Source of the DNA: Amoebophrya sp. A120 | Taxonomy: Eukaryota; Protista; Dinoflagellata | Length of the DNA: 64,000 nt | Direction of reading: 5' to 3' | Assembly (NCBI GenBank): GCA_905178155.1 | Contig: CAJINV010000016.1 | Location: 1-64,000 of the forward strand | Part shown: piece by piece, positions 1,813 through 60,431 of the stretch | How the letters are laid out: each line of letters starts with the position of its first letter | Position numbering within the stretch: position 1 is the first letter of the stretch | Notes under the pieces: generated by a model | The model's input: the letters and a program-made list of their open reading frames with translations, nothing else | Databases searched by the model: none | Told to the model about the DNA's origin: nothing | Position numbers and translations under genes: made by a program

Positions 1813-4800
1813 ATGACCGGCGCACCAGAAGATGCAATGGAAAAGATGCTGCCTCAACAACCAGCACCGAGGACGTGGTCCGCCGTGCAAGGACTTGGTG
1901 CTAGTACCAAAAAGCCCAAGAAAAATAATAAAAACCCTCTTTCTGCTCACAACAAGGAAGTACTACGTCAGGCCACGACGACACTGCATGCGGATGCCGC
2001 AACCAGCACGGAAACCCTCTCTGAGACCCTGCCCAGCCTCGCGGTGCAGCGCGAGCAGGCGGAGCAGGAGATGCTGCTGGATTTCCCTTTTGATTTACGG
2101 AGAACGCAGTTAATCGCCAGGTTGTTCGAGCTGGTGCAAGACCACGCGGAAGAGAAGTCCACGGTGGTGCAACAAGATGTCGCGCAACTCTTTCTCTGTA
2201 TTCACAGGAAATAATTTCCCCTGCACGTACAAATGCTATTTCCGCATGACAAAACTTGCCTCCAATCTGAGTCAGCATGACAGGAAGTTGGTTCGGCACA
2301 CTCCAAGTGAAAAATAGCGCAACCTGTCATGCATTTTGCACATGTGCCGCAGGAAATTGGTATGGCATACTCTCCGCCGGGATTCTCGAGGCCAACGTGT
2401 ACTTCTACCAGAGTGAAGAGATTGACCAGGGGTGCGTGATCGGCCCCAGTGTCTCCTTACAGGAAGTCGTGCAGCAGTTTATGAAATGTAAAAATGTCTG
2501 GGTCTGGAAGAATGCACGTTTGTCATGCTTGTCTGGCATGACTCGGGAATCTGTGTTGCATAGGCACGAAAAAGCCTTCTTACCTGTCATGCAAAAACGC
2601 AGTTTGCCATGCGGAATACGTAAGACATGGCAGCCAAAAAATTTGTGATGCATAGCTGTGTATTGCAGTACGTCTATCATTCATTTTTAGCATTACAAGT
2701 TTCCAGACCCAGACATTTTTACATTTGATACAGTTGTTGGTACAGCAGAACGAGAGCAGCAGCTTTCAAGGCCTAGAAAATATCCTGTGCAAAAGTATCG
2801 TATTCGTATAAATGCAAGTCTTGCATTACAAATCTTCTTCTTGAGGCAAATCCGCATTACAAATTTTATTTCTCATGCTGAGGAAATTTGTGATGCATTT
2901 ATACGAGTACGATACTTTTGCAATTCATAGAAAATGGTGGTGGTGAGCAAAATGACCCCCTAGATCACGATCCTTTCGTGTTAGACGACCGCTTATGTAT
3001 CACCCAGGAGCTCTTCGAGTCCTTACTGCAAGAGATGACAAACCTCGAGCTGGCACAATGCGTCGACGCGGTACTGGATCACGCATTGCAAATGGAGACC
3101 AGTTGGGGGATCAGCTGTCCGATCCACAACAGCGGTCATCTTCCAGGTGGTCAACACGGGACCACGACGAGTTCATCGCTGAAGCTAAAAGGTGCAAACG
3201 GGATCGCCCTCTATGAAAACGACCTTTTCCTGGCGGACTCGATGTCGCATGCCATATTTCGCATCAGAAACTGGAGCGGAAATAATAATGGGGGAGCGAG
3301 TTCTTTGGGAAATAACCTGACGAATCGAAATAGCAGTACTGCTGGAGTGACCGGGTTGGCGGGAGGAGGTGGTGTTGGGAACAACAATCTTCCTGGTATT
3401 CTTGCACTTGCTGAATCCACCATCAATGCGGTCCTCATCACGTTGAGAGTTCTTGTTGTAGTCAGAGTCTCTGTACGAGAACGAGTACGACCTGCTGCGC
3501 TTAAAAATCTACTGGTGATGTTGTAGACTGTTGACTACGTCGTACTGCCGCGTTACTTGTTCGTCAAACATAGTTCTTTACTTCATCGATGATCTTTCAG
3601 TAGAAAAATCTCGCCGCTTATGTTTTCCTATTATCCTATCTAAATCAGGCCCCACGTCCTACCAGTTGCACCAGCACGACCACTATCAAGTGTAAAAGTG
3701 TCTGGGTCTGGAAACTTGTAATGCTGGGCGGCGTATCATGAGGAGGCTACAAGTGCTGGCTCAGCATGACAAGTTTCTGAGCTTCTTGGTGTTGCCTATT
3801 CTGCATGACAAACTGCGTTTCTGCATGACAGAAAAATGGGGGTCTTGGGTAATGTGCATGACAAATTTAAGAGTCATGTGAGACAAGCATGACAAACTTG
3901 CATTCTTCCAGACCCAGACATTTTTACAGTTGATAACCACCGGTCGGGCTCTACCACGACCAGCGGGGGCAGCAGCGCGACCGGCAGCATTGTGTATATG
4001 AAATGCAAAAGCATCGTACTAGTAGAAATCGCATGACAAATTCTCTCAGCATGAAAAATGGAATCTGTAATGTGGATTTAGGTAAAGAAGGAAATTTGTA
4101 ATGCATGACAGCGATTACTACGAGTGCGATACTTTTGCACAGCATTGTGTACAACCCGCACCAGCAATACAGCCCGACGAGCGGGGGCGGGGGCGGTTCT
4201 TTCGGCGGGGGCAACAGCACGTCGAACGCGGCGGCCAATAGTTCGTCGTCACCTTCTCGAGGAGGCGGACATCACCAGCAGCACCCTTTTGCCCACCAGA
4301 ATTCTACTACTTCCTCATCCGCAAGCCAGAACCTCGAGCTTTTCGCGGGTAAACTGAAAAACCCGGGTTTCCGGGACGGCCCGAGAGCCCTGGCCCAGTT
4401 CAACGGCCCCTCTGGGCTGTGCATCTGCCGCAGAACCGAGCAGCTTTACGTCGCGGACACGAGGAACGACAGCATCCGCGCGATCGATTTGATCTCCGGC
4501 CTGGTGCAAACCTTGACGGTGCAGTCGGTGGATTTTATTGGCTTGTCCAACCCAGTGGACATTTGCATAGTGTACGGTGACTTCGACTACGAAGACAATG
4601 AGTCCTCCGACAACAACAGTTCTGGAGATGAGGAAAATAACCGGCTGAATGGAAACAACTCCGATGGTGGCAACATACGAGAAGGTACAACCGCTCCCCC
4701 TACTGCTACCGCTCATTTGTCATGCAAAATCCCAATATATGCAGTCGCTCTCGCTGCCTCATAGTCATATCACTACAGTTTGCGTAACAAATTCCGGAAC

Positions 4801-7800
4801 AAGCCGAAACAGTACTACACTGGGCGCACCAAATTTGTCATGCGTAGGCTTTACGCGTGCTGGTGTTTGTATTCGTATTGCTGTACATGCTAAAAAAATG
4901 ATGGGGAGGCGGGGAAGTCCGAGTTGTGCATCTTCATACAAGAATTCTGACGACGAGAACGATAACGCGAACAAACCGAGGCTGGAGCAGATCCAGGAGG
5001 AGGACTCCGCCGAAGTGGAACTGGAAGACGCGTCCGAGCAATTCGCGAACGCTGGGGGGGCTGGCGGGTTATCCGGGTCGATTATGGAAGCGGCTAGCAG
5101 CAGGCGGAGAATGATGTCGGACTTGTACAACATATCAAATGCAAATATGTCTGGATCTGGAAAGGAGGAACTTGTAATGCGTGTCATGCATACCAATACC
5201 TGGAAAATCTGTGTTGCATGAGCAGCAAATGGGCTCCTGCTTCCCTTGTCATGCAAAAACGCAGTTTGTAATGCGTGTTAGGCATTAGTGGCGCTTGCTT
5301 CGGAAGCTTGTCATGCTTCGCTGCCATTGAAAGCGTTGCAATCATGCGCAACTCAGCATGACAGGGTTCCAGACCCAGACATATTTACATTTCGTACAAC
5401 AGGCGGCGGTCCGCGAGGTTCAGCTTAGCGGATGAGTACGGCATTACGCCTATCGTATTTAAAAACGTTCCCAACCCATAGGATAGTCGTAATGCAAATC
5501 TGCATGCTGGAAATGTTTCTCATGCGGAGCCCCATGCGAAGCATTCTCTAGCCACGTTTTGGAATTTGTCATGCTCCAATCAGCATGATATACTAAATCT
5601 GTAATGCTGCTGAGCTAGCTCAAACAGCACGACACTACGACTCCAAATTTGTCATGCGAAACAGCCAAAGCTTGTGGATTTGTCTAGCCGATTCCCCATC
5701 TTGACCATGGGGTGGGGACGTTTTTACGTAGGATAACGCCGAGTGGGAAGTCGTCTGTCCGGACGAGCCGGAGGACCTCCCGGGCGTACACCTCTTATCC
5801 TGTGCAAAAGTATCGTATTCGTAGTAATCCCATTCATGCATTACAAATTTCTTTCTCAAGTTAAATCCGCATTACAAATTTCCTTTCTCATGCTGAGGAA
5901 ATTTGTATTGCAATTCATACTTACTAGTACGATACTTCTCCACAGGATACCTCTGATTCGATGACAACGACGAGAAGAACGTCTCTCAATCTATTAGACC
6001 ACACGAGCGGGAACGTGATCGACAGTCTGCGAGAGTTGTCCGGGGTTATCAAGTGTAAATAGTGTCTGGGTCTGGAAGAGTGCATGTTTGTCATGCTTGT
6101 CTGCCATGACTCTCAAATCTGTCACGCACGTTACCCAAGAGCGCCATTTTTCTGTGATGTAGAAACGCAGTTTGTCATGCAGAATAGGCAACACATAGAA
6201 GAAGCTCAGAAACTTGTCATGCTGAGCGAGCACTTGTGGCCTCCTCACGATACGCCACCCAGCAGCACAAGTTTCCAGACCCAGACGCATTTGCATTTGA
6301 TAGGAGTGGCGAATTCCCAATTCGACAAGCTGCCCGTATGGGATTCTCAATTGTTACATTCTCAACTGTTACAGGAATTTGTCATGCAAAAGCACCATCA
6401 TCATCCTCACGATCAAGCTACTCCGCATGACAAATTTGGCAAGGCCTAAAGCGCGCCTAAATCTGTGCGGAATTCGTAATGCTACAGGTGCAACCTTCCC
6501 CCTTGTACTTTTCCAATTCTTGCATCACAAGTTCATGTAACAGTTCTTGAGAATGTAACAGTTGAGAACGCCATAGCCCGACCTGGCGATTGCTTGCGAC
6601 CACTCGGTTTTTGTGATTAAACGGTCTGGCACTTTGGAAATGTCCTTCGTCGCGGGGAACATTTTATCCAGGAGAAAACACCCATCCCCCCATCCATTGG
6701 TTGCATGACAAACAAAGGAGCTTATTCATGTTTTGCATGACAAATTGGATGGGGATGGGTGTTTTTTTCTGGATGCGTTTCCGAATACGGCTACAAGGAC
6801 GCGGCGAAGGGTTCGGACGCGCGGTTTAGCCAGATCCGGGGAATTTGCTCGATTCGGAATTCTATCAACTGCAACCTTATCGTACTAGTTAATGAATTGC
6901 AATACTTACAAAGTGACTCCGCATTAAGGATATCCGATATTCAAGTTTGTAGTTTGGATTTACCTTAGCAGCGTAGAGTTGAGTTGTAGTGCATAAGTGG
7001 AACTACTACGAGTACGACTACGTCGGTACTTTTGCATTGGATAAGTTCCGTCTTCGTCGCTGACCATTGGAACAACGCGGTCCGGTGTATCTATCCAGTG
7101 AAAATATGTCTGGGTCTGGAAACTTGTGATGCTGGCTTGGGAATGGTGGACACACTGCAATACGCAGCCAAACATGACAAATTCTTAAGCTGCTATGTGT
7201 TCTTGCGAGGTCTGCATGTGCAGGGCAAACTGCGGCTGCGAGTTCTGCATGGCAGACTGGGGTTTTGCACGGGAGGCAAGAGACTCTCATCCTGCTCATG
7301 CATCACAGAGGTAGGAGTCATGAGAGACAAGCATGACAAACTTCTACTCTTCCAGACCCAGCAGATCGATATTTGCAATGCATAGCATCAATTTGAAAAC
7401 CACGGGGGTCGACACGGTCATGGACTTTGAGCCAAACGGGCCGCTTATCTTGAGTAAAAATGTCCTCATACCAGAGTTGTCATGCAAATGCGCAATGAGA
7501 GCAACATTTGTAATGCGCGTCTCCATGAAAGGCACTTCCACTCGTGTTTTGGACTTTGTAATGCTGTAGGCAGGATGGGAGGCTGGATTTCTCATCCGGC
7601 TTCCCTTGCTAACCAGCACTACACTGCAGATGGAAGCTTTTCATGCGCAGCGCCCAAAACTTGGAGATTTGTGTTGCTGATTTACCAACTTGACTATGGG
7701 GTGGGGACGTTTTTACACAGAATACCGCTGAAACTGACAGCCTCCGACTCTGGGTATTTGTACGTTCTGGACTCCGACACAATTCACATGTGCAACATTT

Positions 7801-10800
7801 TGAAAATCTGTTCGGTGCAGCGGGAAAATCTGAGCACGTCCGGAGTTATCCACAGTAAATTTCCCGTACACGTGCAAATGCGGTCTCTGCATGGCAAGAC
7901 TTGGCTTCGATCCTAGTTTAATAGCATGACAAGTTTCACACTCCAAATTGGGGAAATTTGTGATGCATCTTGTACATGTACGGGAATGGGAAATTTGTAT
8001 TGCATAGGAGTGAATGGAAGCTCACTGGGCACCTTGTCGTTCCAGAACTTGCAGAAGCAAACGCTTTCTGGCATCGGAAATCATGCTGCTGGTGCAAGCA
8101 ATACAAGAAGCAGCATCGGTGGAGCTGCCGGTGGTCCTGTGCCGCCGACAACTGGAGCTGTATCTACTGCATCGCCCGCCGTCGGTGGTGGTGTGAGCAA
8201 GGGCACTTTGCTGGGGGGAAAGAGTCCCATTCTCTCCGCTAGGAAGCTTTCCTTCACACCGAACCTGAACACGAAGACCGAGAATAACGAGAACACCTCC
8301 TCCGCCAGCAGCTCTAGCGGCGGTGCAGAGACGACCAGTGCTGACAGCAACCAACTTAACGTCAACAGGAACCAACCCCGGTCCGGGTCCTTCTTAGACG
8401 CGAATTGGCGCACTGTATGATGATTTGCAAATATGTCTGGGTCTGGAAGATCCTAAACTTGTGATGCTGTCTCTGGATTCTAAACAAAATTGTGTAGCAT
8501 GACCAGCAAGATGAGGGCTCCAGTTTGATGTCCTACGCGGAGAGGGCATTTCTCATGCGGTAGAGGCATCGCATAGCCGTCTGAAAATCTGTGATGCTAG
8601 GACATGCATCACAGACATCATGGGTCATGCAAAATGTGCATGTTGACAAACCTGGCAATCTTCCAGACACAGACATATTTGTAGTTGACACACTGCCACG
8701 GATCACAAGAGTTTTCAGGATATGCTGTGCCAAAGTATCGTACTCGTAGTAATCGCAGTCATGCATTACAAATTTTTTTGTCAATGTAACTCCGCATTAC
8801 AAATTTCATTTCTCATGCTGAGGGAATTTGTCATGCATTTATACGAGTACGATACTTTTGCAATTCATACAGGAAGAACGGAAACGAAAGCTGTCCGCGG
8901 CTGCAGTGGAGTTCAATTTTGCCGCGGCGGCCGCGGGCACCATGGTAGCAGGTGGTGGACGAGGAGTTCCTCTTGGTGCGTCAACTTCTTCTACGGGAAA
9001 AATATATGCTGGTACTTCGACTTCCTTTCCCACCCCATGCACAGTGCCCAAAGTCGTCGTATCGGTACTACCCGCAGGATCAGCAGCTGCATCTACTTTC
9101 CATGCCGGAGCGACCGGCGCAGGAGCAGGTTCACAAACTGCGCCCCACGGCGCAGCTGTGGTTGGTTTCTCACTGGACGACGATGATGACGATGATGAAG
9201 AAGACAGCGAGACGGAAAACGATTCGCGTTCGGAATCCGCGGTAAGCTCCAGAACATCCAAGACAACCTCCACTACAAACAAGAACAACCAAGGAATAAA
9301 TGGTAATGGAAATGAAAGCTCGACGTCCACCTCCAAGGTCGTCGTGGATACCGATACCAAGAACAATCCACCGAATGGAGCGGTCGTTTCGATTGTGCAA
9401 GTGCAGGTGCCCGGGTCACCGGTGAAAAGCAAGAGTCATTTATCGGCGTCGGCGGAAGTAGGCTCAGCTGGCTCATCTAGTACGGGCAAAAGCGCCAGCT
9501 GCAATGGTCCTCTACTACAGGACGTCGCAGGAGATCAGCATAGTCCTCGCGATGCATCTTCATCAAAGACTGTTCAAAATAACCTGAACCTCCTTCAACC
9601 TGTCAACTCCTCCGCGTCCAATGCCTCCAGTTCCCGCCGTGGCAGTTTTTCCGATCCTTCGATTCTCAACGCCCCGAACCTCCCCGGTTTCAACCCAAAC
9701 AACTTGACCAATATGAACTGCAAAAGTATCGTACTCGTATAAATGCATTACAAATCTTCTCAGCATGAGAAATAAAATTTGCAATGCGGATTTGACTTAG
9801 CGAAAAGATTTGTAATGCTTGATTGGAATACGAGTACGATACTTTTGCACAGGATAACCAACCACGGGGACCAAAACGCGAATTTGCTCATGATGCCAAA
9901 TCATCAAATGTAAAAATGTCTGGGTCTGGAAGAATGCAACTTGTAATGCGTATTTCAGAACACAGAAAAGTCTCTCATGCATACGTAGCAAAAGCTGCCC
10001 ACTTTCTGTCAGCAAAGTAGGGGACTTGTCATGCGGATTCGGCATTGCGGAAGCTTCTCGAAACCTGTGATGCTAGAGCTTCCATGCCAGACCTTCTGTG
10101 TCATGCAAAAACAGCATGACTCTTCCAGACCCAGACATTTTTACATTTGATACAAATTCGAACAACAGCTCACAACTTTTGGGCGGCGCAAATACCGCCG
10201 GAACGACTTTGCTAAACAACTCAGCGGCGAATTCCAACATCACAAAACGCGGGTCGTCCGCCCCCGTGGTTCCAGTTGCGTTGCGATCACTCGTCCCCGG
10301 CGCCAGTCTCCATCTATGACAGTGCACAACTCGTCCCCCTCCCCCTCATTTGTCATGCAAAATACCCAATCCGCCCTTTGCCTCTTGGCACTGTTTGCAT
10401 GACAAGTTCTGGTAGCCCAAATAGCACTACAATTTGTCATGCAAAAATCGGCACTCTTGCTGATGCTTGTATTGCTGTTCATGCTATACAAATGAGGGGG
10501 AGGGGGAGTTGTGCGCTGTCATAACATCCTGCTTTGTTGCAAATGTCCACGGCCCGAGAACCGGTCAAGGAGGGCTGTATGCATTGCAAAACCAAAAGTA
10601 TCGTACTCGTATAAATGCACTACAAATTTTCTCAGCATGAGAAATAGAATTTGTAATGCAGGTTTATCCTAAGAAAAGGACTTGTAATGCATGACTGCAA
10701 TTACTACGAGTACGATACTTTTGCACAGGATAGGCTTTTCCGGATCGCAATTCCGTGTCTCCGTTGCGTCTTCGGTTTCCGACGGGGACAACGAGGGCGA

Positions 10801-13800
10801 TTCCGTCGCGTACACAAAATCGATCCAGTCGGGCAACTATCCTGTGCAAAACTATCGTATTCGTATTGCAGTCATGCGTTACAGATCTTCTTCTTAAGGT
10901 AAATCCGGGCATTACAAATTTTATTTCTCATCATGCTGAGGAAATTTGTAATGCATTTATACGAGAAGTGCGATATTACTTTTGCAGTTCATAGCAACCA
11001 CGGAAAGCGGAAAATTGTGGGTGGTACTGGGAATAGAGCCTGGCAAAAAGTCCCGTTCGGGCTGTCAGAGGTGTTGAACCCAGATGCGGCTGGGAACGCG
11101 GGGGGTGGACGTGGCGGGTTGGTATCGCAAGGAAAAATCCCCCCTCCCCTTATTGAAGAGGTAGGCTGTCCTCGAAAATTTGTGTTGCTGATTTGAGGTC
11201 ACAAATCACGTTTGTGCTGCAAGAAGACAAGGGCAGCAGCTTCCGTCCCATTATGGAGCCGGTTTGTCATGCTGTTGCGCCAACATTGCGGAAGCTTTTC
11301 ATGCTAAGCGCCTAAGTCAAAGCCTCTCTACTCCGGCTTGATATGGGTCTGCAGTCCTCTCCAGCAAGACAAACGCGATTTGTGTACTCAAATACTGCAT
11401 CACAGATTTCGTTTTCGATATTTATGGGGAGGGGGGATTTTTCCTCTCAATAGTTGGACTCCCGCAGCTTGAGTTCCACGTCCGGCCCTTCTCCCCATCC
11501 GAGTATTTCGGTGCAGCACAGCCGGTCCAGGAATTTCATCTTCACCGGCGGGCCGATTTTGGGTTCCTCTTTCGGCATTTTAGGTGGCAGTGTCGTTGGT
11601 GGTGGTACAGCTGCCCACGCGCAGAGCATCAATCCGCAAGCCGCTTGGGGCCCGAACTCCATGCCGCTGTGTCTGGCGCTGCACGATCTCGCGAGCGAAG
11701 CCGCCCGGATCGACGACCGGAACCCTCGGTTCTGTGCGCAGCCGTTGGTCATGAAAAGAAGTTCGACAGATATTTTGTGCGGCGGTGCTGGTGGTGGTGG
11801 AGGTGGTGGAAGTGGGTACTATGCTGACCACCAACAGGATCCTTTTCTCCACTACCGGAGGAGCTCGAACAAAGACAAAGCGAGTTCGTCTCGTCGCGGC
11901 AGCAGCAGCGCCCGACATTCGATCAACGCCATGGGAGGTGGGGCAGGACCAGGTCAAAACGCGACCTTTGCCGGCGCGGGCGGAAGTGGTGGCGGTGGCA
12001 CCTCCTCATCCAGGGGTGGAGGCACAAGAACTTCTGATGTTGAGCATGGAAATAAAGCCGCGGCAGCGGGGCCGCCACATCAAGATGAAGACTCTGTGAT
12101 TCACAGAGGCCTAGAAGAAGATTTGCAAGCGTTTTTCCCGGGTATAAAGCTCTTCAAGGACAAAGAAAATTATCCTGAGGAAGACGACTTCGACTCACCA
12201 TCCACCGCAGGCCATCTTCATCTCAATGATCTTGATGTTGACAAAAGCAAAAATGCAAGACCTACTCGTACTCCGCAATATGATGGTGATACCAGCAACG
12301 ACGTAAGAACCGCGGGTTTAGCAACGTCCTCTCAGCACCAGCCGAATCAAAAAACAAGACACCCGCTCTCTCGCCAGCAATCCGGGCTGCAGGTGCACAC
12401 GGCCAACTCGAGCCGGAAACCCAGCGTGACGCTCCAGCAGGGCTTGGGATTCCTGTTGCCACAGCGACGCCCGAGCAACGCGTGGCTTTTGAACAAAGCA
12501 ATGATGATGGGAACAATGCATAATGAGGGTCTGCTCGTCGTACAACCTGGTGGTGGATTAGGTCAGCAACCAGGCAGCTCCTCCTTTCTCAGCCTCGGAA
12601 ATTATTATAGCAGTGGCGCCAACGGCAACGCGGCGATGTCCTCTGTCTACAAAGACCTCCCACGCAGCACCTACGGGCCGACGACGAGGCAAGGGCGGAG
12701 CAATGTCTTCAGCGGTTTTGGTCCTTTCAACTCAAGCTGCATGGTATGCATTGCAAAAGTATCGTACTACGCATATATTGCATCACAAATTTTTTCAAGA
12801 GAAAAAATGCAACTTGTAATGCTATTTCACCTAAAAATTGGGATATTTGTCATGCACGATAGCAATTACAACGAGCGCGATACAACTTTTGCAGTGGATA
12901 CATGGCAAGCTCCACCGTCCACCCGTATGCCGCCAGTGGGATCGTGTGTGGACTGAACGTATCCTGTGCAAAAGTATCGCACTCGTAGTAAATAATTGCG
13001 TTTTTGCATTACAAATTTCTTTCTCAAGGCAAATCAGCATTTACAAATTCCATTTGTAATGCTGAGGAATTTTGATGTAATGCGATTTCTACTAGTACGA
13101 TCAACATGCTTTTGCATTTCATAGAACGGCTACGGCTCGGGTAGCTGCACGACAAATTTGCTGTCCGCCTGTAACGGAACAACGTACTATCCACCCGCGG
13201 GCCACTGTCCGGGCGGGGGTGGTCTGTTTGGAGGAAAGAGCAGCAACGGAATGATGAACGACTTCTACACGCTATTGTGAGGAAAAATCCCCCCTCCCCA
13301 TACCAAAAAAGGGCACTACTGAAAATTTGTGATGCTGATTTGTGACCACAAGTCGTCCATGTATTGCAAGAGGGCAAAGACAGAGAATCAGCCGCGTTTG
13401 GCAGGCTCTTTGTAATGCTGTAGTATCGCCTACAGAGGATATGCCTGCCTTGCTAGGCGCCTACAGAAAAACGCCCCTGCTCAGGCCCTGCATCTGCCTG
13501 CAGTCCTCTACTGCTAGACAGATTGGATTTGTGTACACAAATCCCGCATCACAGATTACCGTTTTGATATGTGGAGGGGAAATTTTTCACTTTGATACAC
13601 GCTCCTCAACCTCCCGCGCCTGTCCCTGTTCGTCGGCTTGAGTTACGAAACAAAAAAACTGCGCCAGTGGACTTAGGTTTCTTCGGGTGACAGCATGACA
13701 AATTTGTTCTGCATGACACAGAAGTCCTGTCATGCAGAATTAGTATGGGATGGAAAACACCTGTACAATAGGAGTTCATGGCTGGCTGGCATGACAAGTG

Positions 13801-16181: not shown

Positions 16182-17983
16182 ATGGCCGACGAAAAAAAGA
16201 CGGACGATCGTTTGAAGCCGCCGCGGCCGACGCTCAAGGTCTTCCGCGAATCCGGGGGTGCGGTAGAGCGGGGGTTTCAGGTCCCCGGGGCATTTAATGT
16301 CACGGTGCTCGCGGAAAAGGAGAAACCAGACAGGTCGAAGCCGCACACAGTATCCTATTTGAACAATAAACGTAATAAATCACCTCCGCAACTGGCTCCA
16401 CCGCGACGTCCGCCAACGACCCAGATTTGTTAAACTCTAAAAATATCGGTATCGTGGTGCACCAGCATGATAGACATGGTATTCTGTCAAGACAAAAATA
16501 CTCAACGTCTTAAGTATAACCTGCAACTCATTAGCCTTCTCGTCTCCAAGAGTGCAATAAGTTGTTAGGGGTGCCGCGCGCTCGCACACCGTCAAAAACA
16601 CTAAGCAACAGCGCGCGATCGATAAACTTCTAAAGCGAAAGTGAAGCCTCGATGGAGATGTTGGAGTTGGTAATCGTGGTGATTTAGAAAATTTGCATAG
16701 GATACACGGACCGGATTTTCGAAATGCTGAAGGACATGAACGAGAGGGATAAGTATTTTTTCTCATTTTTTGTCTACATTATTGCTCCTGCTAAGCTCGC
16801 ATGACAAAAGCCACACGTACTATTCCAACGGGGTGCATGACAAACCAAATCCACAACGCAAACAGCTACTTCCTCGGCGAGCCCCGGTCCGCTTTTGTGA
16901 AAACGCGCACCATATGCATCGCAAATGATGTGTCTGGATTTAGAAGAACACTTCATGAACTTGTCATGCTAGGTCCGGATCTACTTCGTCTCGTGCAAAA
17001 TCAAAATCAAAAATCTGTATTGCGCGATTGCCAAAAGGCTGATGATGATGATGATGATGATGATGGTCGTGGTTGCCAGATAAAGTTGCGCACTTTTATT
17101 GGCCAAGTTGTGAGGAAGAGGAAGTGGCTTCATGCTAAATTGGCATGAGAGATAGAAGAAGAGATATGGCAGTAGAATCTGTCATGCTAGGTCCTCCTGC
17201 ATGTTGCCAGAGGACCTCATGAGCCGCGGTCATGGAAAATCATCTGCATGGTAACAAGTCTTACGATCTTCCAGACCCAGACATATTTAAAGTGAATACA
17301 CCGACTACGACCCAGCAAGGACCCATCTGACCGAGCAAATGCCCGTCTTGGAAAAGCATCGAGCAATCGTTGCAGAGGAGGGGGAGGCGCATAAGACGTG
17401 CCAAAATCCGGTCCTGAATACCATGGACAAGGCAAGAGCGGAACAGATGGTACTGTGTGTTTCTTGTTTTTGTGGTTCTCCTTCGTGATGCTTACTGATG
17501 TCCACCGCGCATGACAAATTGCATTTCTCTTGTATTTTCTGCAATACAACAATCAAAAGCAAAAGCCCGGCTGATCATGCTGATGCAAATTATACAATCA
17601 GACCCTGAACACGCTTTCCACCTTCGAGCTGTCTCCGACGAGTTATGAAAGTGCACAACAAGTCCGCGTCCGCCCCCTCCCCCTCATTGTCATTGATTTG
17701 TATTGCATGAACAGCAACACAAGCGTCAGGGTCGGCAAGAATACAGGTTTTGCATGACAAATTTGGACAGGTAGAGTGTAGTGCTATTTGGGCTGCCAGA
17801 ACTTGTCACGCAAGCAGGGCCAAGAGCCAGGGCGTAATAAATTAGGTATTTTGTAATGACAAACGAGGGGTAGCAGGGGAGGTTGTGCACCCTCATACGA
17901 GTAAGAGCAAGGCGAAAAGGGAGGCGCAGATACCGAAAGTACCGCTGACGAGACTGTTTCCGGCCACAGGGAAAATTATCTGA
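16182..17983 (+). CDS. Hypothetical protein, about 175 aa; 3 introners and 2 GT-AG introns (16753-16865, 17450-17601)
   Basis: Spliced exons total 528 nt and are open from MADEKKTDD to PATGKII-stop. Confidence 0.7.
16351..16704. mobile_element. Introner, orphan family M
   Basis: Direct repeat cacag/cacgg; inverted repeat tatcctat/ataggata. Confidence 0.75.
16913..17298. mobile_element. Introner, family A (expanded, internal (gat)n)
   Basis: Direct repeat cacca/caccg. Confidence 0.8.
17644..17897. mobile_element. Introner, family D
   Basis: Direct repeat cgagt/cgagt. Confidence 0.88.
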
Positions 17984-27637: not shown

Positions 27638-27645
27638 GGCAGGAA

Positions 27646-27864
27646 TATCGCAAGAAAAAAGTGTTACAGTTACACATTGTGTTGCAGGCCAAGCAAGACA
27701 GACAAGCTCTGTCATGCAGGATATGCATAGGAGCCTGCCTCCTCTCATAGGTGTTTTCCCTATAGGATTTCTGCATTGCAAGTTTTCTCTCTCATGCCGA
27801 GAAATTCGTGTTGCTGAATATACTACAAATGTGTAACTGTATGTAACACTTTTTTCGTGGGATA
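27646..27864. mobile_element. Introner, family H-like, in presumed 3' UTR
   Basis: Direct repeat aggaa/aggaa; inverted repeat gaaaaaagtgttaca/tgtaacacttttttc. Confidence 0.85.
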
Positions 27865-35200: not shown

Positions 35201-38200
35201 AAATAAATAATAAACCGTCAACTACGACGAGTACGATTCCGGTGCCGAACGACACACCCACAACAACTTCCTCCTCTTCTACGCACCCGACACCGCACGT
35301 TCACGGGACGTCGGAAGCAAATCCAAACTCGCTTTCAGACAGCAAGATCACCATCGGGACGCCAACAGATAGTACTTCTCTCCAGGACAACGACCTCAAC
35401 CTCGACAAGATTTCCGGCTCAACGCTTGCGCCCGCGACACACAACAAGGTCGCCCCCTCTCCGTCGGAAATGTCGGTCTCTTCCGTTCCGACAGACGCGG
35501 GCTCCGAAGCAAACAAGGCACTCTATGGCGTTCTCAAACGTTGCATTCTTAGCTGTTGCATGAATTTGTGATGCAAAATTATAATAAGCCTCCACAAAAT
35601 GAAGGTGCTTCGCATGACAAATTCCCGAAGGGCTAAACAGCACCTACATCGGTGCGCCGGAACTTGTAATGCTAGAAGTGTAACTGCCCCCCTTTGACTT
35701 TTATATTCTTGCATTGCAAATTTATCTGACGGTTGAGCATGCAACAGTTGAGAGTCCCATACACTCCGGGCGGAAATGGAGGAATTTGAGCGGAAGAAAG
35801 CGGAATATGAGCGGAAAAAGCAACAGGATATGGAAGTGTCAAGATCGAAATCGACAAAATCGAAAAATTTGTAATGCAAGGAATGTTGTAGGGCACGCAT
35901 GGCCTGTGTAGGGGAGCACGCAAATGAGACCGATTGCAAGCCTGCTTAGGGAAAGACGATGTGCTGCCGGAGCAGCATGACAGGAGCAGTATTCTTTGCC
36001 CAAAAAGCATGACAGACTGGATTTTGGTGCTCCCGAAATTTGTCATGCGCCACTTGGAAACTGAGGCGCCATCTGGTATGATTTTATGCATCACAAATAG
36101 TTTCGATTTTGTTGATTTCGATCCTCACGCCTCCATACAGGATATGGAGGAACTAGAAAAGATGAAACGGGAAAAGGAGGAAATGGAAAAGTGGAAACGG
36201 GAAATGGAGGAAATGGAAAAGTGGAAGCGGGTATCAAATGCAAATATGTCTGGGTCTGGACGGGTCCCAGGTCGAAACTGTATTGCGTGTCTCGCATTCC
36301 TAAAAGATCTGTATTGCAAAAGCAGCAAACAAAGCGCCGCACTTTCGTCATGCAAAAACGCAGTTCGTATTGCGTCCTGCGCATGACAAAGCGTTTGAAA
36401 AATTTGTCATGCTGCGCTGCAGTTAAAGGCACAGTCAATCATGACCATTCAGCATTACAAGTTTCCAGACCCAGACACATTTGCAATCCATAGCGGGAAA
36501 GAGAGGAAATGGAGAAGTGGAAACAAGAAACGGAACAATTGAAGCGCGAAAACGCGAAGCTGAAAGAAGAAAGGAGATACAGCGACGCGACCAATAACAA
36601 CAGCAAGAGCAGCAGCTCAAATTCGAACAGCGCAATAAATGGAGGGTCGTCGGCCCTGCAGACGCCGCGAGATAATCTTTCCACCAGCACCACAGCCTCA
36701 ACTACAACTGCCCGTCGCCACACGATGGGGTTGGGTCTGCCGAAGTTGGATTTCTCGAAACTAGCGAGCAGAAATGGGGCGGGGACGACGTCGAATAATA
36801 ACTCGACCAGCAGAGCTGCAATGAGTGGGCTGAGTCTACCGAACGGAAATTCTACTTCTTCCGCCCTCTCTGCGAGTCTCGGCGGGTCGACGTCATCAAG
36901 TAGAGCAGGAGGGGATAGTACAACGGGTACTAGAGGCGGCACAGGTGGACAAGAAGATTGCAGTAATTCGACAAGAGGAGGACAAAATGGCTCGACGTCA
37001 GCAGGAGCAGGAGGTGCGCCAGCAGCGATGAATAGCACACAACAAAATGGAGCAACTTCCTCGTCTTCATCCTCCTCAACAGGGAACACATCTTCCGCTG
37101 CCGACCAGCCTCTGCTCGCTCCCCGCGAACGGCGCAACAACACGGAAAATCTGATGAAGAGCTTCTACGGCAAGAAGGACCAAGTGCTGAAAAAAAGAAA
37201 CTTCTACGCCTTTCAGCGATCGTTGCTGGAAGAACAAGCGTGCGGGGCGGAAGAAGATTTCAGTATGCCGATGACAGCCAGGGGAGGACGGACAGGAGGT
37301 AGTGAAATAAGGAGTTGTGGACTGATTGATGTGGAGGTTCATTTCGGTGTATACAACGTCGACGAGTAATGCTAATGTTCTTGCTGTGCTCCTTTGAGTT
37401 GTTCTTGTGATCTAATACTTTGGTTCTTGTTCGTTGATTTTCTCCTCGGATCACGTGGCCCCCTAGCAGCAGATGCCAGTATTGCTACTGTGCGACTAAA
37501 GTAGCGATCATGGCTTTCTGCGCAGTACTAGAGAAAGCCATACATCACTGATTCTAGTTCTACTTCTTCGTCTTCAAAACCCACATGAATAAGGAGTAAC
37601 CTTATCAGGTCCCCTCGCCTCCGACCTTCTGCAAACCGGCGGCCCAGGATCTCGCTGCCCCACTCCGTATTACAAGCAAAAGTGTTAACGTTAACGGTTT
37701 TCACAGATTACAGTCATGCATCACAAATGTAGCCCAATATGCATGCTACGCATTACAAATTTTGGCATGTTTTGTGATGCCCTGCTGCATCACAAATTCC
37801 GTTAACACTTTTTGGTGTGATACTCCGCGGCAGCACAGCATCCACCGAAAAGAAAACCGGTACGATACGCCGTCGAAGCAGAGGATTGATTCCGAGTCTT
37901 TTTATGCATTGCAAATATGTCTGGGTCTGGAAACTTGTGATGCAAATCTACGAATTGTGGGCGCACTGCAATATCCAGCCCAGCATGACAAGTTTTTGCG
38001 CTGCTGTGTGTTTCGTTTTGCGCGTGACAATCTGCGTTTTTGCATGATAGGCAATCGGCCCGCCTTTTCCTGCTCATGCATCACGACAGATCTAAAAGTC
38101 ATGCCAGACAGGCATGACAAACTTGCATTCTTCCAGACCCAGACATTTTTGCACTTGATACTTTTCTCAACACACCGATGATGTCCGCGAGGGGCGGGAG

Positions 38201-40934: not shown

Positions 40935-43900
40935 ATGTCCGGCCTCACGGACGACGTGGAGATGGGAACGGCAGAGGAGCAAGCGGAGGAGGTTGTCATG
41001 CAAGACAGCAACTACAACAGTCCAGACTCCGACATGACCCACCTTTTAGACGACCCGGAAGATCAACATGAACAACAAGAAGTCGACGACATCGCAGCAG
41101 ACGCGTTAATGAGGGACGACGACGCGGGCCGCCCTGAGCAGGCATCGTCCTCCTCGTCATCGGGGAAGAGAGTTGATGGAAAGGGACCGACACCAATGTC
41201 AACATTATCAACAGGTGCAGCCGACGAGGACGAGTCCAAAGACCTCGACATGCAGTTGCTTCTGGAGGGAATGAGGAAGAAGGGTCAACAGCAGGGCAAG
41301 CAAGACCTGTTCGATCTGAAAGGCACAACTGGTAAAGGAACAAGTAAGAGTAAAGCAGACGCGATACTAGCAAAGGGAAAGAAGATGATGCTGCTCGACA
41401 AAATGAAAGGCGGCAAGGGAAACAAACGACCGGCACAACCACCATCGCCAGATGAGCTTCTTGATACACACGACAGTAATATTCGTGGTCCTGTAATAGA
41501 TGCGCTAAAGTCTTCGCCGGATCTGCAACCACCGGTGGACGGGAATGTGAAGGAAGGGCAACACGACATGCCACCACCAAAGAACAAAACGCAAAGTAAG
41601 AGCGAAGATTATAGCCAAAGCAAGAAGGCAAAAGTCAGTCCCTCAAACAACAACATATCCGCGTCGTCCAAAAATAAGAAGGGCCCTACAAGTACAACCC
41701 CGGCGGTTTTAGATTTGTTTCAGGACCTGCAAGACCTGAAGGGGAACAACAAGAATTCCAAGGACAATCCTCAGGACAGCGGGGACGATATGAAATGCAA
41801 AAGCATCGTACTAGTATAAATTGCAATACAAATTGGCTCAGCATTACAAATTGAATTTGTAATGCGGATTTGCCTTCACAAAAAAATCTGTGATGCATAA
41901 AAGCAATTAGTACGAGTACGATACTTTTGCACAGGATAGACGAAATTCCTCCGGAGCTGTTGCCGAAATTGGAGAAGTATGAACTGCAAAAGCATCGTAC
42001 TCGTATAGATGCATTACAAACTTCCTCAGCATGAGAAATAAAATCTGTAATGCTGATTTGCCTTGGAAGCAAGATTTGTGATGCAAGACTTGCATTTATA
42101 CGAGTGCGATACTTTTGCACAGGATAGGAAGAGGTACGGGGTTCCGGGCAAGAAGATTGTCTCCATGGTGGAGGGGGACGACAAAAACGAGAAATTGGTC
42201 ATGTTCAACGACTTTAGCCTGGGCGACGTAATATCAAATGCAAAAATGTCTGGGTCTGGAAGAATGCAAGTTTGTCATGCTTGTCTCACATGACTCGCGA
42301 AACTGTCATGCACATTACCCAAGCGCCCCGTTTTTCTGTCATGCAGAAACGCAGTTTGTCTTGCAGAATAGGGAACACCTAGAAGCTCAGAAACTTGTCA
42401 TGCTGAGCCAGCACTTGCGGCCTCCTCATGATACGCCACCCAGCATCACAAGTTTCCAGACACAGACACTTTTACACTTGATACGTAATCGACTTCGACG
42501 ATTTGGACGGCACGAAGCCAAAGAAATTGACGCTGTCGGAACTCCTGCTTGCGGAGGTGAAGCAACGATACGTGCAGAACGCCCTGCGGGTCATCAACGA
42601 CGAGGAGTTTGACGCGATCGTATGAAAGTGCACAACTCCACCTGCTGCTCCCCCTCACTTGTATTGCATGAACAGCATTACAAGCGCCAGCCAGAATACC
42701 GGTTTCGCATGACAAATTGGGACAGGAGAATAGCGCTATTTTTTGGGCTGCCAGAACTTGTCATGCAAACAGTGCCAAGAGCCAAGGCGTAAGCTAGGCA
42801 ATTTGCATGACAAACAAGGTCCACGCGTGGGGACAGGGTCCCCACGCTGGGGCCTTGTGCTCGTCCCTAGTGGCGCTAGTGGGGGAAGGGTGTTCGGCAT
42901 CGGGGCGGACAGCGTCCGCCCCTCGCCTCACACCAGGCGCGCGCGTAGTGGCTTAGTGCGCGAAACGCTAGTGGGGGAAGGGTGTTCGGCATCGGGGCGG
43001 ACAGCGTCCGCCCCTCGCCTCACACCAGGCGCGCGCGTATTGGCTCAGTGCACGAAGCGCTAGTCGTGGAAAAAGGGCGAATTAGGCGCCCTGCATTTTG
43101 CAAGAAAAAACAAAAATAGAAGCAGAGTAGATATCTCTGTGTGGCTGCTGCAAAAAAGTTCTCTAACATTGAAGCGCAACGCCTTCCGATTCCACAGAGC
43201 AAAGTAAGCAGCTGTCTCCTGGCCGTGCATTGCAGAGATAGCCGCTTTTTTATTTTTGCATGGCAACGCAAAGACTTCTTTGTTTATGGAGGCAGGTTGT
43301 GTTGCAGCTTTAATCTTTTTCATTTTGTGCGTCGCATTTTTTTTTGGCGCTTTTAATTTATTTTTCATTTTCCCGTCGGCATTTGGCGTGGAAAATAAAT
43401 AAATATTTGCGTCCAGGCGCTGGTCTCGCCTTTGCTTTATCCTCTCGCCCCGCCTGTCGCGGCCACCTGTCCGGGTCACCTGTCAAGGTCACCTGTCAAG
43501 GTCACCTGTCAAGGTCACCTGTCAGGGTCGCCTGTCAAGGTCACCTGTCAAGGTCACCTGTCAAGGTCACCTGTCAAGGTCACCTGTCAAGGTCACCTGT
43601 CAGGGTCGCCTGTCAAGGTCACCTGTCAAGGTCACCTGTCGAGGTCACCTGTCGAGGTCACCTGTCGAGGTCACCTGTCATGGTCACCTGTCACGGTCAC
43701 CTGTCAAGGTCACCTGTCGCCGGGGGGTAGGCGGGACCAGATCCCGGAAGTCAAGCAATGTAAATATTAATGAGGGAGCAGGGCGAGTTGTGCACTTTCA
43801 TAGATCGATGCTGACAACCAGAACCTGCGCATTCTCTTCGTGGGCAGCGGCAACATGGGGTGGGAAGCGGACCTGTCGCTCAAAGTCGCGCACTTTCACT

Positions 43901-46900
43901 ACGAATTCGCGGACCAATTGAAGAAGTTGACCCAGGTGCCGGATTTGCTTAGCGAGACAGCGAAGGAAAAATTGCTGAGCAACTTCGACAAAAACGGCAA
44001 GGCGAAAAACGAACTGAACAACATCAGCCTGGTATGCAAAAGAAAAACTGTGTAAGTGTAAATTTGTGTTGCAGAACATGCAACAGAGTTGCGCCTGTCA
44101 TGTCAGACAGCCATGAACAAGTCCTCTTTTCATGTGTGTTTTCCCTTACAAGCCACGCGTAACAGGTTTTCTCTGTCATGTAGAGCAAATTTGTGATGCT
44201 GTTTCTCAAAGAAACAAGGCACACTTACACACTTTTTCTCCTGGATACCTGCACTGCATCGACGTGACCGTGCTGGAGCCGAGTTTCCGCGGCAACGGGT
44301 CCGAGGACTTATGGGAGTGTCAGGATCGAAATTGACAAAATCGAAAAATTTGTAATGCATAAAATGTAGGGTACATATGGCCTGTATTGGGGAGCAGGCA
44401 AATGAGACCGATTGCAAGCCTGTTTAGGGAAGGCGATGCGCTGCCGGAGTAGCATGACAGGAGCAGTCTTCTTTTCCGAAACAGCATGACAGGCTGGATT
44501 TTGTTGCTCCCGAAATTTGTCATGCACCACTTGGAAACTAGGCTCCAACTGGTATCCATTTTATGCATCACAAATTATTTCGATTTTGTTGATTTCGATC
44601 CTGACACATCCATAGGACTTTGAGGTGAAGTACCAGGGCGAGGACGGGGTGCTCTGGAAGTCGATTATCGAGGCGTGCGGGCAGTTATCCTGTGCAAAAG
44701 TATCGTATTCGTATTGCAATCATGCATTACAAATCTTTTATAAGTAATCAAATCCGCATTACAAATTTTATTTCTCATGCTGAGGGAATAATTTGTAATG
44801 CATTTAAATACGAGTGCGATACTTTTGCAATGCATAGCAGTGCGTCCGGTTCACGGTGGACGCGGAATTTCTGACCGGGTCCCTCCACTTGGCCCGGGAG
44901 CGCGGCTCCGGGGGGACGGCAAAGAGGAGAACGCTGTTTGAGCAATTCGCCACGCGTTTTCGCATATCAAGTGTAAAAATGTCTGGGTCTGGAAGAATGC
45001 GCGACTTGTCATGCAGCTTTTCCATGACCCATGAGGTCTGGAATGCAGGGCCTAGCGTGACAGATTCTGTGCGATCTTTCTGATGCCTATCCTGCATGAG
45101 AAACTGCCTCCCGACTTGGTCAAAACTGGACGACTTTTGGTAAGCATGCAACACAGATTTTTGGATGCTTCAGATTTAGCATGACAAGTTGCATTCTTCC
45201 AGACCCAGAGGACACTTTTACACTTGATACCGCAGGGAGGACTATGATTTGGATGCGGATGAGAGCAGCCCGATGGAGACCGACGGGCAAGAGGGGAACG
45301 AAGACGAGGACAGTGGTATCAAAAGGAAAAATCCCCCCTCCCCATATCAATAACGTATCCGTCTGAAAATTTGTGATGCAGATTTGTGGCCACAAATCCT
45401 GCCTGTCTTGCAGGAAGGCAAATTGAGAGAGGGCGCCGCGCCATGCAGGCGGTTTCTCATGCTGTAAGGCCTACAGGGCAGACGTCTGCCATGCTAAACG
45501 CCTACACGACCAGAAGGCCCCCGTCTAGGTTTGCGATCTGCGTGCAGTCCTCTACTGCAAGACAGATCTGATTTGTGTATACAAATCCCGCATCGCAGAT
45601 TTCCGTTTTGATATGGGGAGGGGGAATTTATTTTCCGTTCGATAAGCGTGGACGCAGACGAAAGAGAGGAGAAGCGGCGGGAAGAAATCGAAAAAGAAAA
45701 GCGGAAAGTGTTTCATTCCATGATGAACCTCCCGGAAGAGGCACAGAACATCTATGACTACGTGATTTGGAATAATCCTTTCCCGACCATCACGAGGGAC
45801 GACGTGAAGAAGGCCAAAGATATGAACAATTCCGCGACGAAGTGGCTGTTCGCTTTGTATCCTGAGTAAAAACGTCCTCACCCCATAGTCAAGATGGTAA
45901 ATCTGCAAGGCAAATCTACAAGCTTAGGCCGTTGCGCATGACAAGTTCGGCCTCGTACTGTGCTCCTGTTTAGGTAGTTCGTCAGCATCACAGATCTAGC
46001 ATAGCATGATGATTCTAGCATAACAAATTCCAAAACACGAAGAGAAATTGTTTCTCATAGGACTCCGCATGAGAAACATTTTGAGCATGCGTCTTTGCAT
46101 GACAACTCTGGAGTGGGGACGTTTTTACAAATGATAAGCTGCTGCCCAAGTTCATCGCGTCGACCAAGAACGTGCTGAAGGCCACCGGAAAATGCTGCAT
46201 CACGGTGACCCCGTCGCAAGCTTTGGGCAAGATGCCGGAGAAGGACGCCAACGGGCGAATCGTGAAATGGACCTCAACCTGGAGCCTGAAGCAAGCCGCT
46301 GCGGAGAATTCCTTTCCGAACAGTGAAGAGCTAGGCTTCGACACCCGGCATGGCATGCATTTCTACAAAGCGTCGTATGGGGATTTTCGCTCTCTCAGCC
46401 AAATTGTGTCGGAAAAGGTACTATGTATGATATTTGAATCCCGGTCCCATTCTAAAAATATAGATAATTTATGTAAGTCGCTAGTCTGCTAAACAACAGA
46501 AGTTGAGCTACCTAATCAGATGAGCGATGAACAAGTAGAGGATGTATCATCTTCATGGTTCTTGCTTTTCTTTCGCTTTCCCACAACGTCACAACATCGG
46601 AAAGACAATAAATCCCCGACCCAAAAAATTGCACAGGACAAACAAGTAAAGGCCGGCGCCTCGTACATTGAGACCGCCGAAGGGCACTCCCGCGTGATCA
46701 GCTACATGTTCTTCAACGCGATGAAGAACAAGAAAGCTCAGAAGGACGCGACGCTGCGAAAGAATATGCCAAAGTGGCGAGGTTTCGATGAGGCGACCCA
46801 GCTGCAACTGCCGGAAAACTACAGGAATAGCATTTCGAAAATAAAACTACCCTCATCCACGACCGCCACCGACAGTGCTTCATCTCCTACAGCTGCTGCT

Positions 46901-47200: not shown

Positions 47201-47205
47201 TAGAT

Positions 47206-47414
47206 TATCCAAGAACAAAACGTTATTAGTGTAAATTTGTGATGCGCAACATGCAAAGTGATTGCGTCTGTCATGCTTGGCATGCATCGTAGGGTCCATT
47301 ACAGGGCGTTTTCACGTACTAGCTGCGCATTACAGGTTTCTGCTGTCATGCAAAACAAATCTGTGATGCTGTTCCTCCAAAAAAGTTACACTTACACAGT
47401 TTTTTTCTTGGATG
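47206..47414. mobile_element. Introner, family H, in presumed 3' UTR
   Basis: Direct repeat tagat/tagat directly after the TGA stop. Confidence 0.85.
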
Positions 47415-60267: not shown

Positions 60268-60431
60268 GGAATTTAGCAGGGTTTTTAGCAGGCATTTTTA
60301 GCACCCAAATTTGGCAGGATTTTTAGCAGGGATTTTTAGCACCCAAATTTAGCAGGTTTCTTAGCAGGATATTTAGCACCCCCAAAATAGCAGCCTATTT
60401 AGCAGCAAAAATAGCAGGAATTTTAGCAGGT
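60268..60431. repeat. Degenerate (tttagcagg)n repeat
   Basis: More than 10 tagca-containing units. Confidence 0.8.

Follow-up and report, generated by a model that had tools for sequence, protein, structure and literature searches.

The introners of the marine parasite Amoebophrya sp. A120 have been described by Farhat et al. (2021; PMC7789003) as introns of about 240 nt with non-canonical boundaries, terminal inverted repeats and direct repeats, for which a hairpin model was put forward. In the passages of that paper devoted to them, the inverted repeat begins with TAT, seven variable bases and an A-run, the direct repeats measure 3–5 nt, and U1 snRNA is given as not detectable in A120. A shared internal motif or spacing is not described in the main passages, sections 11–12 or supplement text of the same work (figures apart), nor was the motif found described in the literature searched. 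Other introns of this kind are the euglenid nonconventional introns and the MITE-derived introners of Micromonas and Aureococcus, which are closed by terminal inverted repeats (TIRs) and flanked by target-site duplications (TSDs) (PMC11282704, PMC9860276); linker-biased insertion is reported for the algal introners (PMC9860276), and the passages of these two papers on such introns mention no helically phased internal motif shared across families. IS3EU/GingerRoot elements have TA..TA termini and a TSD usually of 6 bp (PMC10045372). For one TIR introner family of A120, integrase-like ORFs have been reported (Gozashti et al.), an observation to be set beside the absence of an A120 transposase in the account of Farhat et al.

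With regard to internal repeats, the closest precedents are found among transposons. Lemi1 proteins bind the subterminal repeats of the Emigrant MITE cooperatively (PMC1636448), and TNPA binds those of Spm/En, where it is reported to block RNA polymerase (PMC2613891). In these parts of the CACTA and Emigrant literature, a short motif that is repeated internally to the TIRs, in direct as well as inverted orientation, is read by protein as double-stranded DNA, is family-specific and is bound by element-encoded proteins.

The window analyzed here is a stretch of 64,000 nucleotides of A120 (contig CAJINV010000016.1, assembly GCA_905178155.1), and its elements agree with the published A120 introners in organism, inverted repeat start, direct repeats, boundaries and length. 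They share TIR closure and flanking TSDs with the euglenid and algal introns, and TA..TA termini with IS3EU/GingerRoot, but their TSD is of 5 bp instead of 6 bp. As to the integrase-like DDE transposase of a cognate autonomous IS3EU/GingerRoot element, the four TIR-bounded elements above 420 bp have stop-free stretches of at most 140 aa. As in CACTA-type repeat arrays, motif copies are found in both orientations inside the TIRs. In contrast to CACTA and Emigrant, one motif is common to nine TIR classes, fills the whole element with a three-turn spacing, and occurs in TIR-less introns too. The ends are TAT..ATA with a 5-bp duplication, not CACTA termini with a 3-bp TSD; by analogy, the A120 array may work like CACTA subterminal repeats in elements that are not members of CACTA.

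The introners of the window

The element set comprised 414 introners in 41 clusters, of which 13 had at least three copies, and spacing and ends were analyzed in 40 family representatives (80 ends) that unmasked BLAST joins into 31 groups. All 80 ends begin TAT-(C/G), the TAT being partly imposed by the TIR detector, and A reaches 0.71–0.90 in positions 11–15, so that a TATS-N6-AAAA core is shared by the TIRs of all representatives and the inner TIR alone is family-specific. The initial annotation, which had spoken of families with unrelated TIRs, was right about this inner part and missed the common end core. Its families are the known introners of A120, as judged by host, TAT plus seven variable bases plus at least three A, direct repeat at the boundary, repeated families and removal from mRNA. 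The two copies of the 5-bp TSD agree fully in 340 of the 400 elements detected (the detector allows at most one mismatch), and the intron is removed as the element plus 5 nt. For 60 of 61 window elements, a reading frame remains open once the element is taken out, although this test is weak. Neighboring elements cluster 30–89 nt apart (94 of 252 gaps, 31.5 expected).

Evidence on intron boundaries comes from the host myosin gene (29255–36594, plus strand; Pfam Myosin_head), whose public A120 protein model P0001 is 100% identical over 160 aa and fixes the intron lengths independently of the detector. All seven single-element introns of this model equal the element plus 5 nt: 30089–30241 (class B ends, no strict octamer; 158 = 153 + 5), 31392–31697 (family 4; 311 = 306 + 5), 32181–32442 (family 0; 267 = 262 + 5), 33661–33916 (class D ends; 261 = 256 + 5), 33974–34154 (class B ends; 186 = 181 + 5), 34798–35028 (family 7; 236 = 231 + 5) and 35524–35761 (family 7; 243 = 238 + 5). 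In addition, one joint was found in a putative RNA contig, from a sequencing run whose nature was guessed, which joins 14799 to 14935 and thereby skips the singleton 14804–14933 with 5 further nt.

The introners are given without strand. Class A ends are found in family 0, with further copies at 8416–8690, 9902–10152, 26968–27234 and 44965–45229, and in family 1, at 2480–2730 (TSD CAGTT; sites 2521+, 2552+, 2585+, 2644+ and 2690−), 3684–3935 (opposite orientation), 5133–5396, 6047–6302, 7092–7384, 27289–27551, 36232–36492, 37903–38160 and 42232–42483 (sites 42273+, 42304+ and 42337+). Family 2 (class B) occupies 2781–2929 (sites 2823−, 2854− and 2889+), 3997–4146, 5796–5949, 7847–8006, 8721–8869, 9712–9856, 10578–10732, 10838–10993, 12745–12900, 12960–13123, 41789–41938, 41978–42126 and 44686–44836. 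Family 3 (class H) lies at 13644–13863, 27646–27864, 44033–44247 and 47206–47414; family 4 (class C) also at 5451–5735 (sites 5567+, 5600+ and 5650+), 7446–7724, 24249–24532, 25991–26274 and 45858–46136; family 5 (class D) at 10315–10523, 14380–14606 and 17644–17897; and family 6 (class E) at 11123–11452 (a contig piece starts at 11453), 13273–13597 and 45317–45644. Family 7 (class G) is also present at 6337–6575 and 14068–14311, family 8 (class F) at 26313–26620, 32504–32809 (sites 32628+ and 32659+), 35829–36137 and 44310–44614, and family 9 (class I) at 6665–6775, an element of 111 bp with same-orientation sites at 6703 and 6735, 32 bp apart. The remaining elements are singletons with class A ends (16913–17298) or class A-like ends (23320–23578), a member of a two-copy family with class H ends (37668–37822), one with class D ends into which roughly 900 bp of repeat DNA have been inserted (42621–43802), a degenerate one with class D ends, read by eye, whose limits are approximate (4676–4938), and an old one with class E ends (55741–56075). 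The stretch 2199–2369 was considered as a canonical GT-AG intron and rejected, as it is a full element of a B-type family that aligns end to end with the element at 6021 of L075.

Occurrence of the motif

The octamer TGTNATGC has 198 copies on both strands of the window, while 8.92 are expected from 100 dinucleotide shuffles (largest shuffle 15). A longer motif of 13 bp, AAAYYTGTVWTGC, has the octamer as its core; this motif includes an A/T tract, and six of its positions are 84–99% fixed. The N of the octamer is better written as V (C 104, A 51, G 41, T 2). With sequence classes drawn by us from ORFs and one protein model, 187 of the 198 copies fall in elements (15,640 nt; 12.0/kb), seven in 13 GT-AG introns (2,589 nt; 2.7/kb), several of these introns having been found via motif matches, one in 22,110 nt of intergenic/UTR DNA and three in 23,661 nt of exon or unassigned DNA. 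The abundance in elements and scarcity elsewhere noticed in the initial annotation are thereby confirmed; eight of its nine octamer coordinates are exact, and at the ninth, 2552, the variant TGTGTTGC is found.

At least one strict octamer is present in 60 of the 62 scored window elements, a tally that leaves out 4676–4938, and at least one motif site is retained in 412 of the 414 elements of the set. The motif is a feature of the elements with two qualifications: GT-AG introns are enriched as well, and one element lacks it. The latter, 55741–56075, has TIRs and restores the frame on removal with no site above threshold, which speaks against identity by the octamer alone.

Spacing and helical phasing

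Among the representatives, 35 pairs of same-orientation copies lie 30–33 bp apart, compared with 5.7 expected, and none of 2000 randomizations reaches 35. This direct spacing is present in eight of nine TIR classes with visibly unlike spacers, and inside the window elements 29 of 129 same-orientation pairs lie 31–33 bp apart. Spacings of 10–12, 20–22 and 62–66 bp are depleted. The length of paired spacings changes almost as frequently (19.4%) as that of control windows (24.1%), which speaks against a strict constraint on the pair. The first site stands at fixed distances from the element end, that is, 33–37 bp in 8, 41–48 bp in 17 and 56 bp in 1 of 26 ends.

The best period is 10.25–10.5 for both same and opposite orientations, the opposite ones being in antiphase. 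When 32-bp pairs are held rigid, cos(10.4) over 121 pairs is 0.214 against −0.008 ± 0.062 (p 0.003 at 10.4, rising to 0.022 when the period scan is allowed for), and it amounts to 0.40 over 65 pairs of the 13 multi-copy families. For adjacent spacings beyond the 31–33 peak the phasing has p 0.049, with a center offset chosen post hoc, and element lengths show no 10-bp quantization. The test for a 10–11 bp period had been set beforehand and the claim of helical phasing survived it, with the amendment that the signal is mainly a single preferred spacing of 31–33 bp and that phasing outside this peak is modest.

Conservation and strand-blindness

The motif core differs by 0.067 per base, whereas the spacers differ by 0.258, and this roughly four-fold excess conservation over neighboring bases, the lack of which was to refute the initial proposal, is found in 10 of 10 families. 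The core is equally conserved in both transcribed orientations: mismatches number 386 in 5888 when the RNA reads UGU… and 365 in 5463 when it reads GCA…, with direction taken from a codon model (right for 47 of 60 window elements), so that a strand effect would be blurred. The constraint persists among the closest pairs and among private substitutions (core 0.031–0.038, spacers 0.071–0.084), which are not necessarily post-insertion because few copies were sampled per family. The classes are not separated by copies with a TSD mismatch. The TIRs are conserved too (0.113 differences per base) and their end core is shared across families; the proposal that the octamer, rather than the TIR, is the identity signal is thus not upheld.

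The motif in GT-AG introns without TIRs

The motif and its 32-bp pair are also present in TIR-less GT-AG introns, which is a new observation. In 122 GT-AG introns predicted without recourse to the motif, by a predictor with many false positives as judged on the window, 20 sites were found versus 7.3 expected (largest of 150 shuffles 14), and the six introns fixed by the myosin model alone hold 2 versus 0.38 expected (p 0.065). When predicted and window introns are taken together, three of eight same-orientation pairs lie 32 bp apart (0.36 expected, p 0.005). The motif is absent from 108 of the 122 predicted and 8 of the 13 window introns, and most motif-bearing ones have same-orientation sites only. 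In the window, all on the plus strand, these are 16753–16865 (octamers 16799 and 16835, 36 bp apart) and 17450–17601 (two sites 32 bp apart), both inferred from the reading frame, the myosin model intron 33101–33265 (33125 and 33172, 47 bp apart), and 25672–25860 and 26687–26902, with one octamer each (25726 and 26790). Such introns could be relics of unsampled introner families; the motif-masked relic test missed the full element 2199–2369.

Possible readers of the motif

The equal conservation in both transcribed orientations, together with the lack of overall covariation for RNA pairing, points to a signal in double-stranded DNA. The common trans-acting factor suggested at the outset, a putative binding protein, is in line with conservation, strand-blindness and spacing. 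Our preferred reading, held at slightly under even confidence, is that the motif is bound by a single protein common to the families, probably encoded by the host, which recognizes double-stranded DNA, still acts after insertion and may help the cell to handle introners. Such a protein would coat the element as double-stranded DNA, and a cooperative or dimeric form could span three helical turns with its sites on one helix face. At the chromatin level the array might then label the intron, and RNA polymerase would be slowed or equipped there during folding and cutting of the TIR stem. The exact position of the cut would still be set by the TIR pair, so that the motif would assist in identifying the intron without being the only signal to do so. 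A further role of the array may be to bring the element ends together for transposition. A bolder version, which we consider doubtful, is that a protein reads the helically phased array on double-stranded DNA and thereby designates introners, together with some ordinary introns, for co-transcriptional removal; hundreds of transposon families would then have spread by means of an orientation-free "splice me" code.

The strongest competitor, a reasonable possibility though one we lean against, is that the sites serve transposition only. A transposase or TnpA-like helper would bind the TATS-N6-AAAA core and the phased array, loop the 110–330 bp element and pair its ends, the sites being passengers after insertion. 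The fixed end distances, the end core shared between families and the Lemi1/Emigrant and TNPA/Spm precedents agree with it, and it accounts for spacing and strand-blindness as well as the shared host protein does. Against it are the sites and 32-bp pairs that stand intact in GT-AG introns without TIRs, since an intact pair decaying neutrally to 30–40% divergence has a survival probability of 0.0008–0.007, and the constraint among private changes and closest pairs. CACTA repeats, as far as the cited passages go, differ between families, whereas here one motif serves nine TIR classes. Moreover, none of the 23 window ORFs scanned contains a transposase domain, and in the passages of Farhat et al. 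(PMC7789003) putative transposases number two for A25 and none for A120, although the integrase-like ORFs described by Gozashti et al. stand on the other side.

An RNA-level signal, in which plus and minus copies pair in the pre-mRNA or an RNA-binding factor or snRNA reads either orientation, is unlikely. In its favor, the interiors of 61 elements have better folds than their shuffles (median z −2.2), a pairing partner among the other sites is predicted for 56% of 104 site-by-orientation cases, and covariation is found in one column of the 30 tested (family 3, 31/33 versus 21.7). However, predicted partners have complementary bases at the V position in 194 of 491 copies, with 189 expected, and sites predicted unpaired are as conserved as paired ones (0.062 and 0.065). 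The dominant arrangement is a direct repeat and thus cannot pair in RNA, and sites of opposite orientation are absent from family 9 and from most motif-bearing GT-AG introns. The period of 10.4–10.5 also matches the helical period of B-DNA (10.4–10.5 bp).

That the motif has no specific reader, and is an array of bendable DNA steps by which the element is covered with positioned nucleosomes or DVNP-type chromatin, is very unlikely. The 10.4-bp phasing in both orientations, the A/T tract, the pile-up of elements at 30–89 nt gaps and the linker preference of introners elsewhere (PMC9860276) would fit. Nevertheless, one-, two- and six-turn spacings are depleted and element lengths lack 10-bp steps. 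Nucleosome positioning signals are much less sequence-specific than a motif with six positions 84–99% fixed. Finally, neutral descent from one ancestral element with a functionless internal 32-bp repeat, to which the relatedness of some representatives (40 in 31 groups) and the shared end core would lend themselves, is highly improbable, being largely refuted by the four-fold excess conservation in all ten families, and with the motif masked the 40 representatives show no similarity in a low-power test.

Implications for introner biology

Among the questions left open in the passages of Farhat et al. (PMC7789003) are how introns in the tens of thousands are removed when splice sites are not fixed and U1 is not detected, and which agent mobilizes them. 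In this sense, the conserved phased motif offers a defined probe for pull-downs, and its relation to splicing efficiency and to copy number can be tested. Should it serve transposition only, it names the cis-code of a machinery for transposition that many families have in common; should it be active after insertion, it would be an intron signal at the DNA level.

Introners, Host Genes and Sample

The repeats of the window are the A120 introners described in the available text of Farhat et al. (PMC7789003), and they contain an internal motif code which is real and previously unnoted. These elements measure ~110-390 bp, run from TAT to ATA, are located within coding sequence and are flanked by 5-bp duplications. 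TA..TA ends are shared with IS3EU/GingerRoot, but the TSD given in the accessible passages on that group is 6 bp (PMC10045372); because of this mismatch, the elements are not placed there. A detector based on TIR and TSD, which works without the internal octamer, found 46 elements in the window and 0 in two shuffles, and a local search or inspection by eye completed a further 17, for a total of 63. A candidate canonical intron at 2227-2352 was rejected as part of a full element and excluded from the final counts.

All statistics refer to the window and about 440 kb of unique sequence, comprising 173 loci of a related assembly that were obtained by a pattern scan of metagenome contigs and carry the same families. 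The combined set holds 414 elements in 41 clusters. Since the loci were picked by the class A TIR pattern, families 0 and 1 are over-represented, and counting was therefore done per family. The same pattern had no matches in viral contigs, nor did an Rfam search of the window return any.

In the public protein model of the myosin gene (29255-36594), the intron equals element plus 5 nt in all seven single-element introns, while two other gaps hold more than one feature; the exon at 31699-32178 (160 aa) is 100% identical to a myosin assigned by its sources to Amoebophrya sp. A120. A putative RNA contig, the sole usable joint from four sequencing runs, joins 14799 to 14935, that is, a 130-bp element plus 5 nt. 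In run X9, some 110 raw RNA reads match the family 0 element at 9903-10152 solely at its start and have other flanks, so a copy elsewhere was transcribed unspliced in that sample. The myosin gene has six GT-AG introns (29869-34504), four of which measure 165-168 nt.

Several additional features were observed. A long gene of low complexity at 2894-14931, which includes NHL repeats, holds ~30 introners; a GC-rich, intronless 687-aa frame at 19583-21646, weakly matching a UDP-glycosyltransferase (E 2e-5), is introner-free unlike its neighbours. At 42621-43802, a class D introner with intact TIRs and TSD has grown to 1182 bp through two additions: a duplication of 92 bp (42874-43071) and, at 43453-43718, a tandem array with 20.5 copies of a 13-bp unit. 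Short tandem arrays (units of 11-13, 22, 38, 43, and 97 bp) and GC-rich repeat DNA form a cluster at 58980-61711, devoid of introners and octamers. By eye, a ~40-bp word occurs three times in the intergenic DNA at 47795-49640 (near 47795, 48390, and 49615), and similar non-coding blocks lie near 1200-1400 and 22190-22330. In the window and 75 of the loci (L001-L075), gaps between neighbouring elements concentrate at 30-89 nt (94 of 252 vs. 31.5 expected, at most 49 in any of 2000 draws) and few are shorter than 30 nt (2 vs. 13.6 expected), under a null that takes gene and intergenic DNA as alike. Near neighbours are mostly of different families (8 of 101 of the same family vs. 11.9 expected), and thus the pile-up is not local hopping.

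The Internal Motif

The octamer, which recurs in both orientations, is found 198 times in the window against 8.9 expected. The initial annotation had described it as borne by the elements and scarce in exons and intergenic DNA, and this holds: 187 occurrences lie in elements, seven in the 13 GT-AG introns, one in the intergenic sequence (22 kb) and three in the rest. Eight of nine positions quoted for it were exact, the ninth (2552) being a variant. Counting each family once, the commonest 8-mer is GCATGACA (28 of 41), and the full 13-nucleotide motif is AAAYYTGTVWTGC. The TIRs, previously regarded as unrelated, all share TAT(C/G)-N6-AAAA and diverge further in. A branch-point role (UNAY in both orientations) was considered and is not favoured because GCAUAACA is the excluded variant.

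No published description of the motif and its spacing was found, although the supplementary figures of PMC7789003 and the 2016 and 2023 introner papers could bear on it; neither appears in text passages of PMC12130899, PMC11282704, PMC12005148, PMC9860276, and PMC6482013. Literal GCATGACA has no occurrences in the Amoebophrya and introner papers listed by the search except one primer in an Amoebophrya paper.

Spacing and Helical Phase

Among 40 representatives, one element per family (155 sites; 31 groups by unmasked BLAST, hence not fully independent), 35 same-orientation pairs lie 30-33 bp apart against 5.7 expected, a number reached in 0 of 2000 randomisations. Representative 19, likely a false element, was left out of the spacing tests. 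Three other distance classes (10-12, 20-22, and 62-66 bp) are under-represented, and convergent pairs peak at 45-50 bp (12 vs. 3.7). The 31-33 bp pair is present in eight of nine TIR classes, with unlike spacers. In 13 multi-copy families, the first site is 33-37 or 41-48 bp from the element end at 25 of 26 ends.

The helical periodicity of 10-11 bp anticipated in the initial annotation is detectable: the scan has its maximum at 10.25-10.5 bp, with same-orientation pairs in phase and opposite-orientation pairs in antiphase. This pattern fits a single helical face if distances run from the 13-mer centre, an offset selected after data inspection. Excluding the 31-33 bp class, adjacent spacings give p 0.049 (78 spacings); keeping those pairs rigid gives p 0.003 at 10.4, or 0.022 after the scan (121 pairs). 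Opposite sites do not form a significant alternating lattice of 16 bp (7 vs. 4.1; 5 vs. 4.1). Counting against the spacing signal are the element lengths, which show no quantisation at ~10 bp, and indels, which affect paired spacings nearly as often as control windows (19.4% vs. 24.1%).

Conservation and the Level of Recognition

Mismatch to consensus, measured in ten families (373 copies), is 0.067 per base at the six core positions, compared with 0.113 in the TIRs and 0.258 in the spacers. The excess persists in the closest pairs and in private changes, and neutral ancestry, by which the sites would simply be inherited, is highly improbable.

Recognition in RNA could be suggested by the interiors of the elements, which fold better than shuffles, more than half of the sites being predicted to pair with another site. 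However, sites predicted to be unpaired are equally conserved, and complementarity of variable bases between predicted partners is at chance (194 of 491 vs. 189), with one covarying column in 30. Elements occur in both gene orientations, 176 copies one way and 168 the other, and core mismatch has equal values for either transcribed strand (0.066 and 0.067), with transcription direction inferred from a codon model at 114 of 139 loci. An RNA-level reading is unlikely. From these results together we infer that the motif is probably recognised as double-stranded DNA, and DNA-level explanations taken together, an intrinsic-chromatin reading included, are very probable.

GT-AG Introns and the Proposed Mechanism

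A close rival among these explanations, quite possible in itself, is that the motif is used in transposition only, as for TNPA on Spm/En (PMC2613891) and Lemi1 on Emigrant (PMC1636448) in the accessible portions of those reports. A scan of 23 ORFs of the window found neither a transposase nor a DNA-binding domain. The motif is also present in five of the 13 GT-AG introns of the window, whose seven strict octamers compare with 0.5 expected, the introns having been partly found via the motif. A noisy predictor that makes no use of the motif gave 122 GT-AG introns once six resembling element families had been removed, and these contain 20 sites against 7.3 expected, within 14 sequences. For the octamer count, the myosin introns fixed by the protein model, six in number, give p 0.065 when taken by themselves. 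Three of eight same-orientation pairs in GT-AG introns are at 32 bp (p 0.005). The motif-bearing introns may be relics of unsampled families; neutral decay would rarely spare intact pairs.

The motif is not required for all splicing, since it is absent from most GT-AG introns and from one old element. This element (55741-56075) has a diverged TSD and no site above threshold; removal of 340 nt unites two long reading frames.

The reading tentatively preferred here, somewhat short of an even chance, is that one shared, probably host-encoded protein binds the sites cooperatively and still matters in the inserted intron. Such a protein would occupy its sites across three helical turns and would likely mark the intron on chromatin, the cut itself being determined by the TIR stem.
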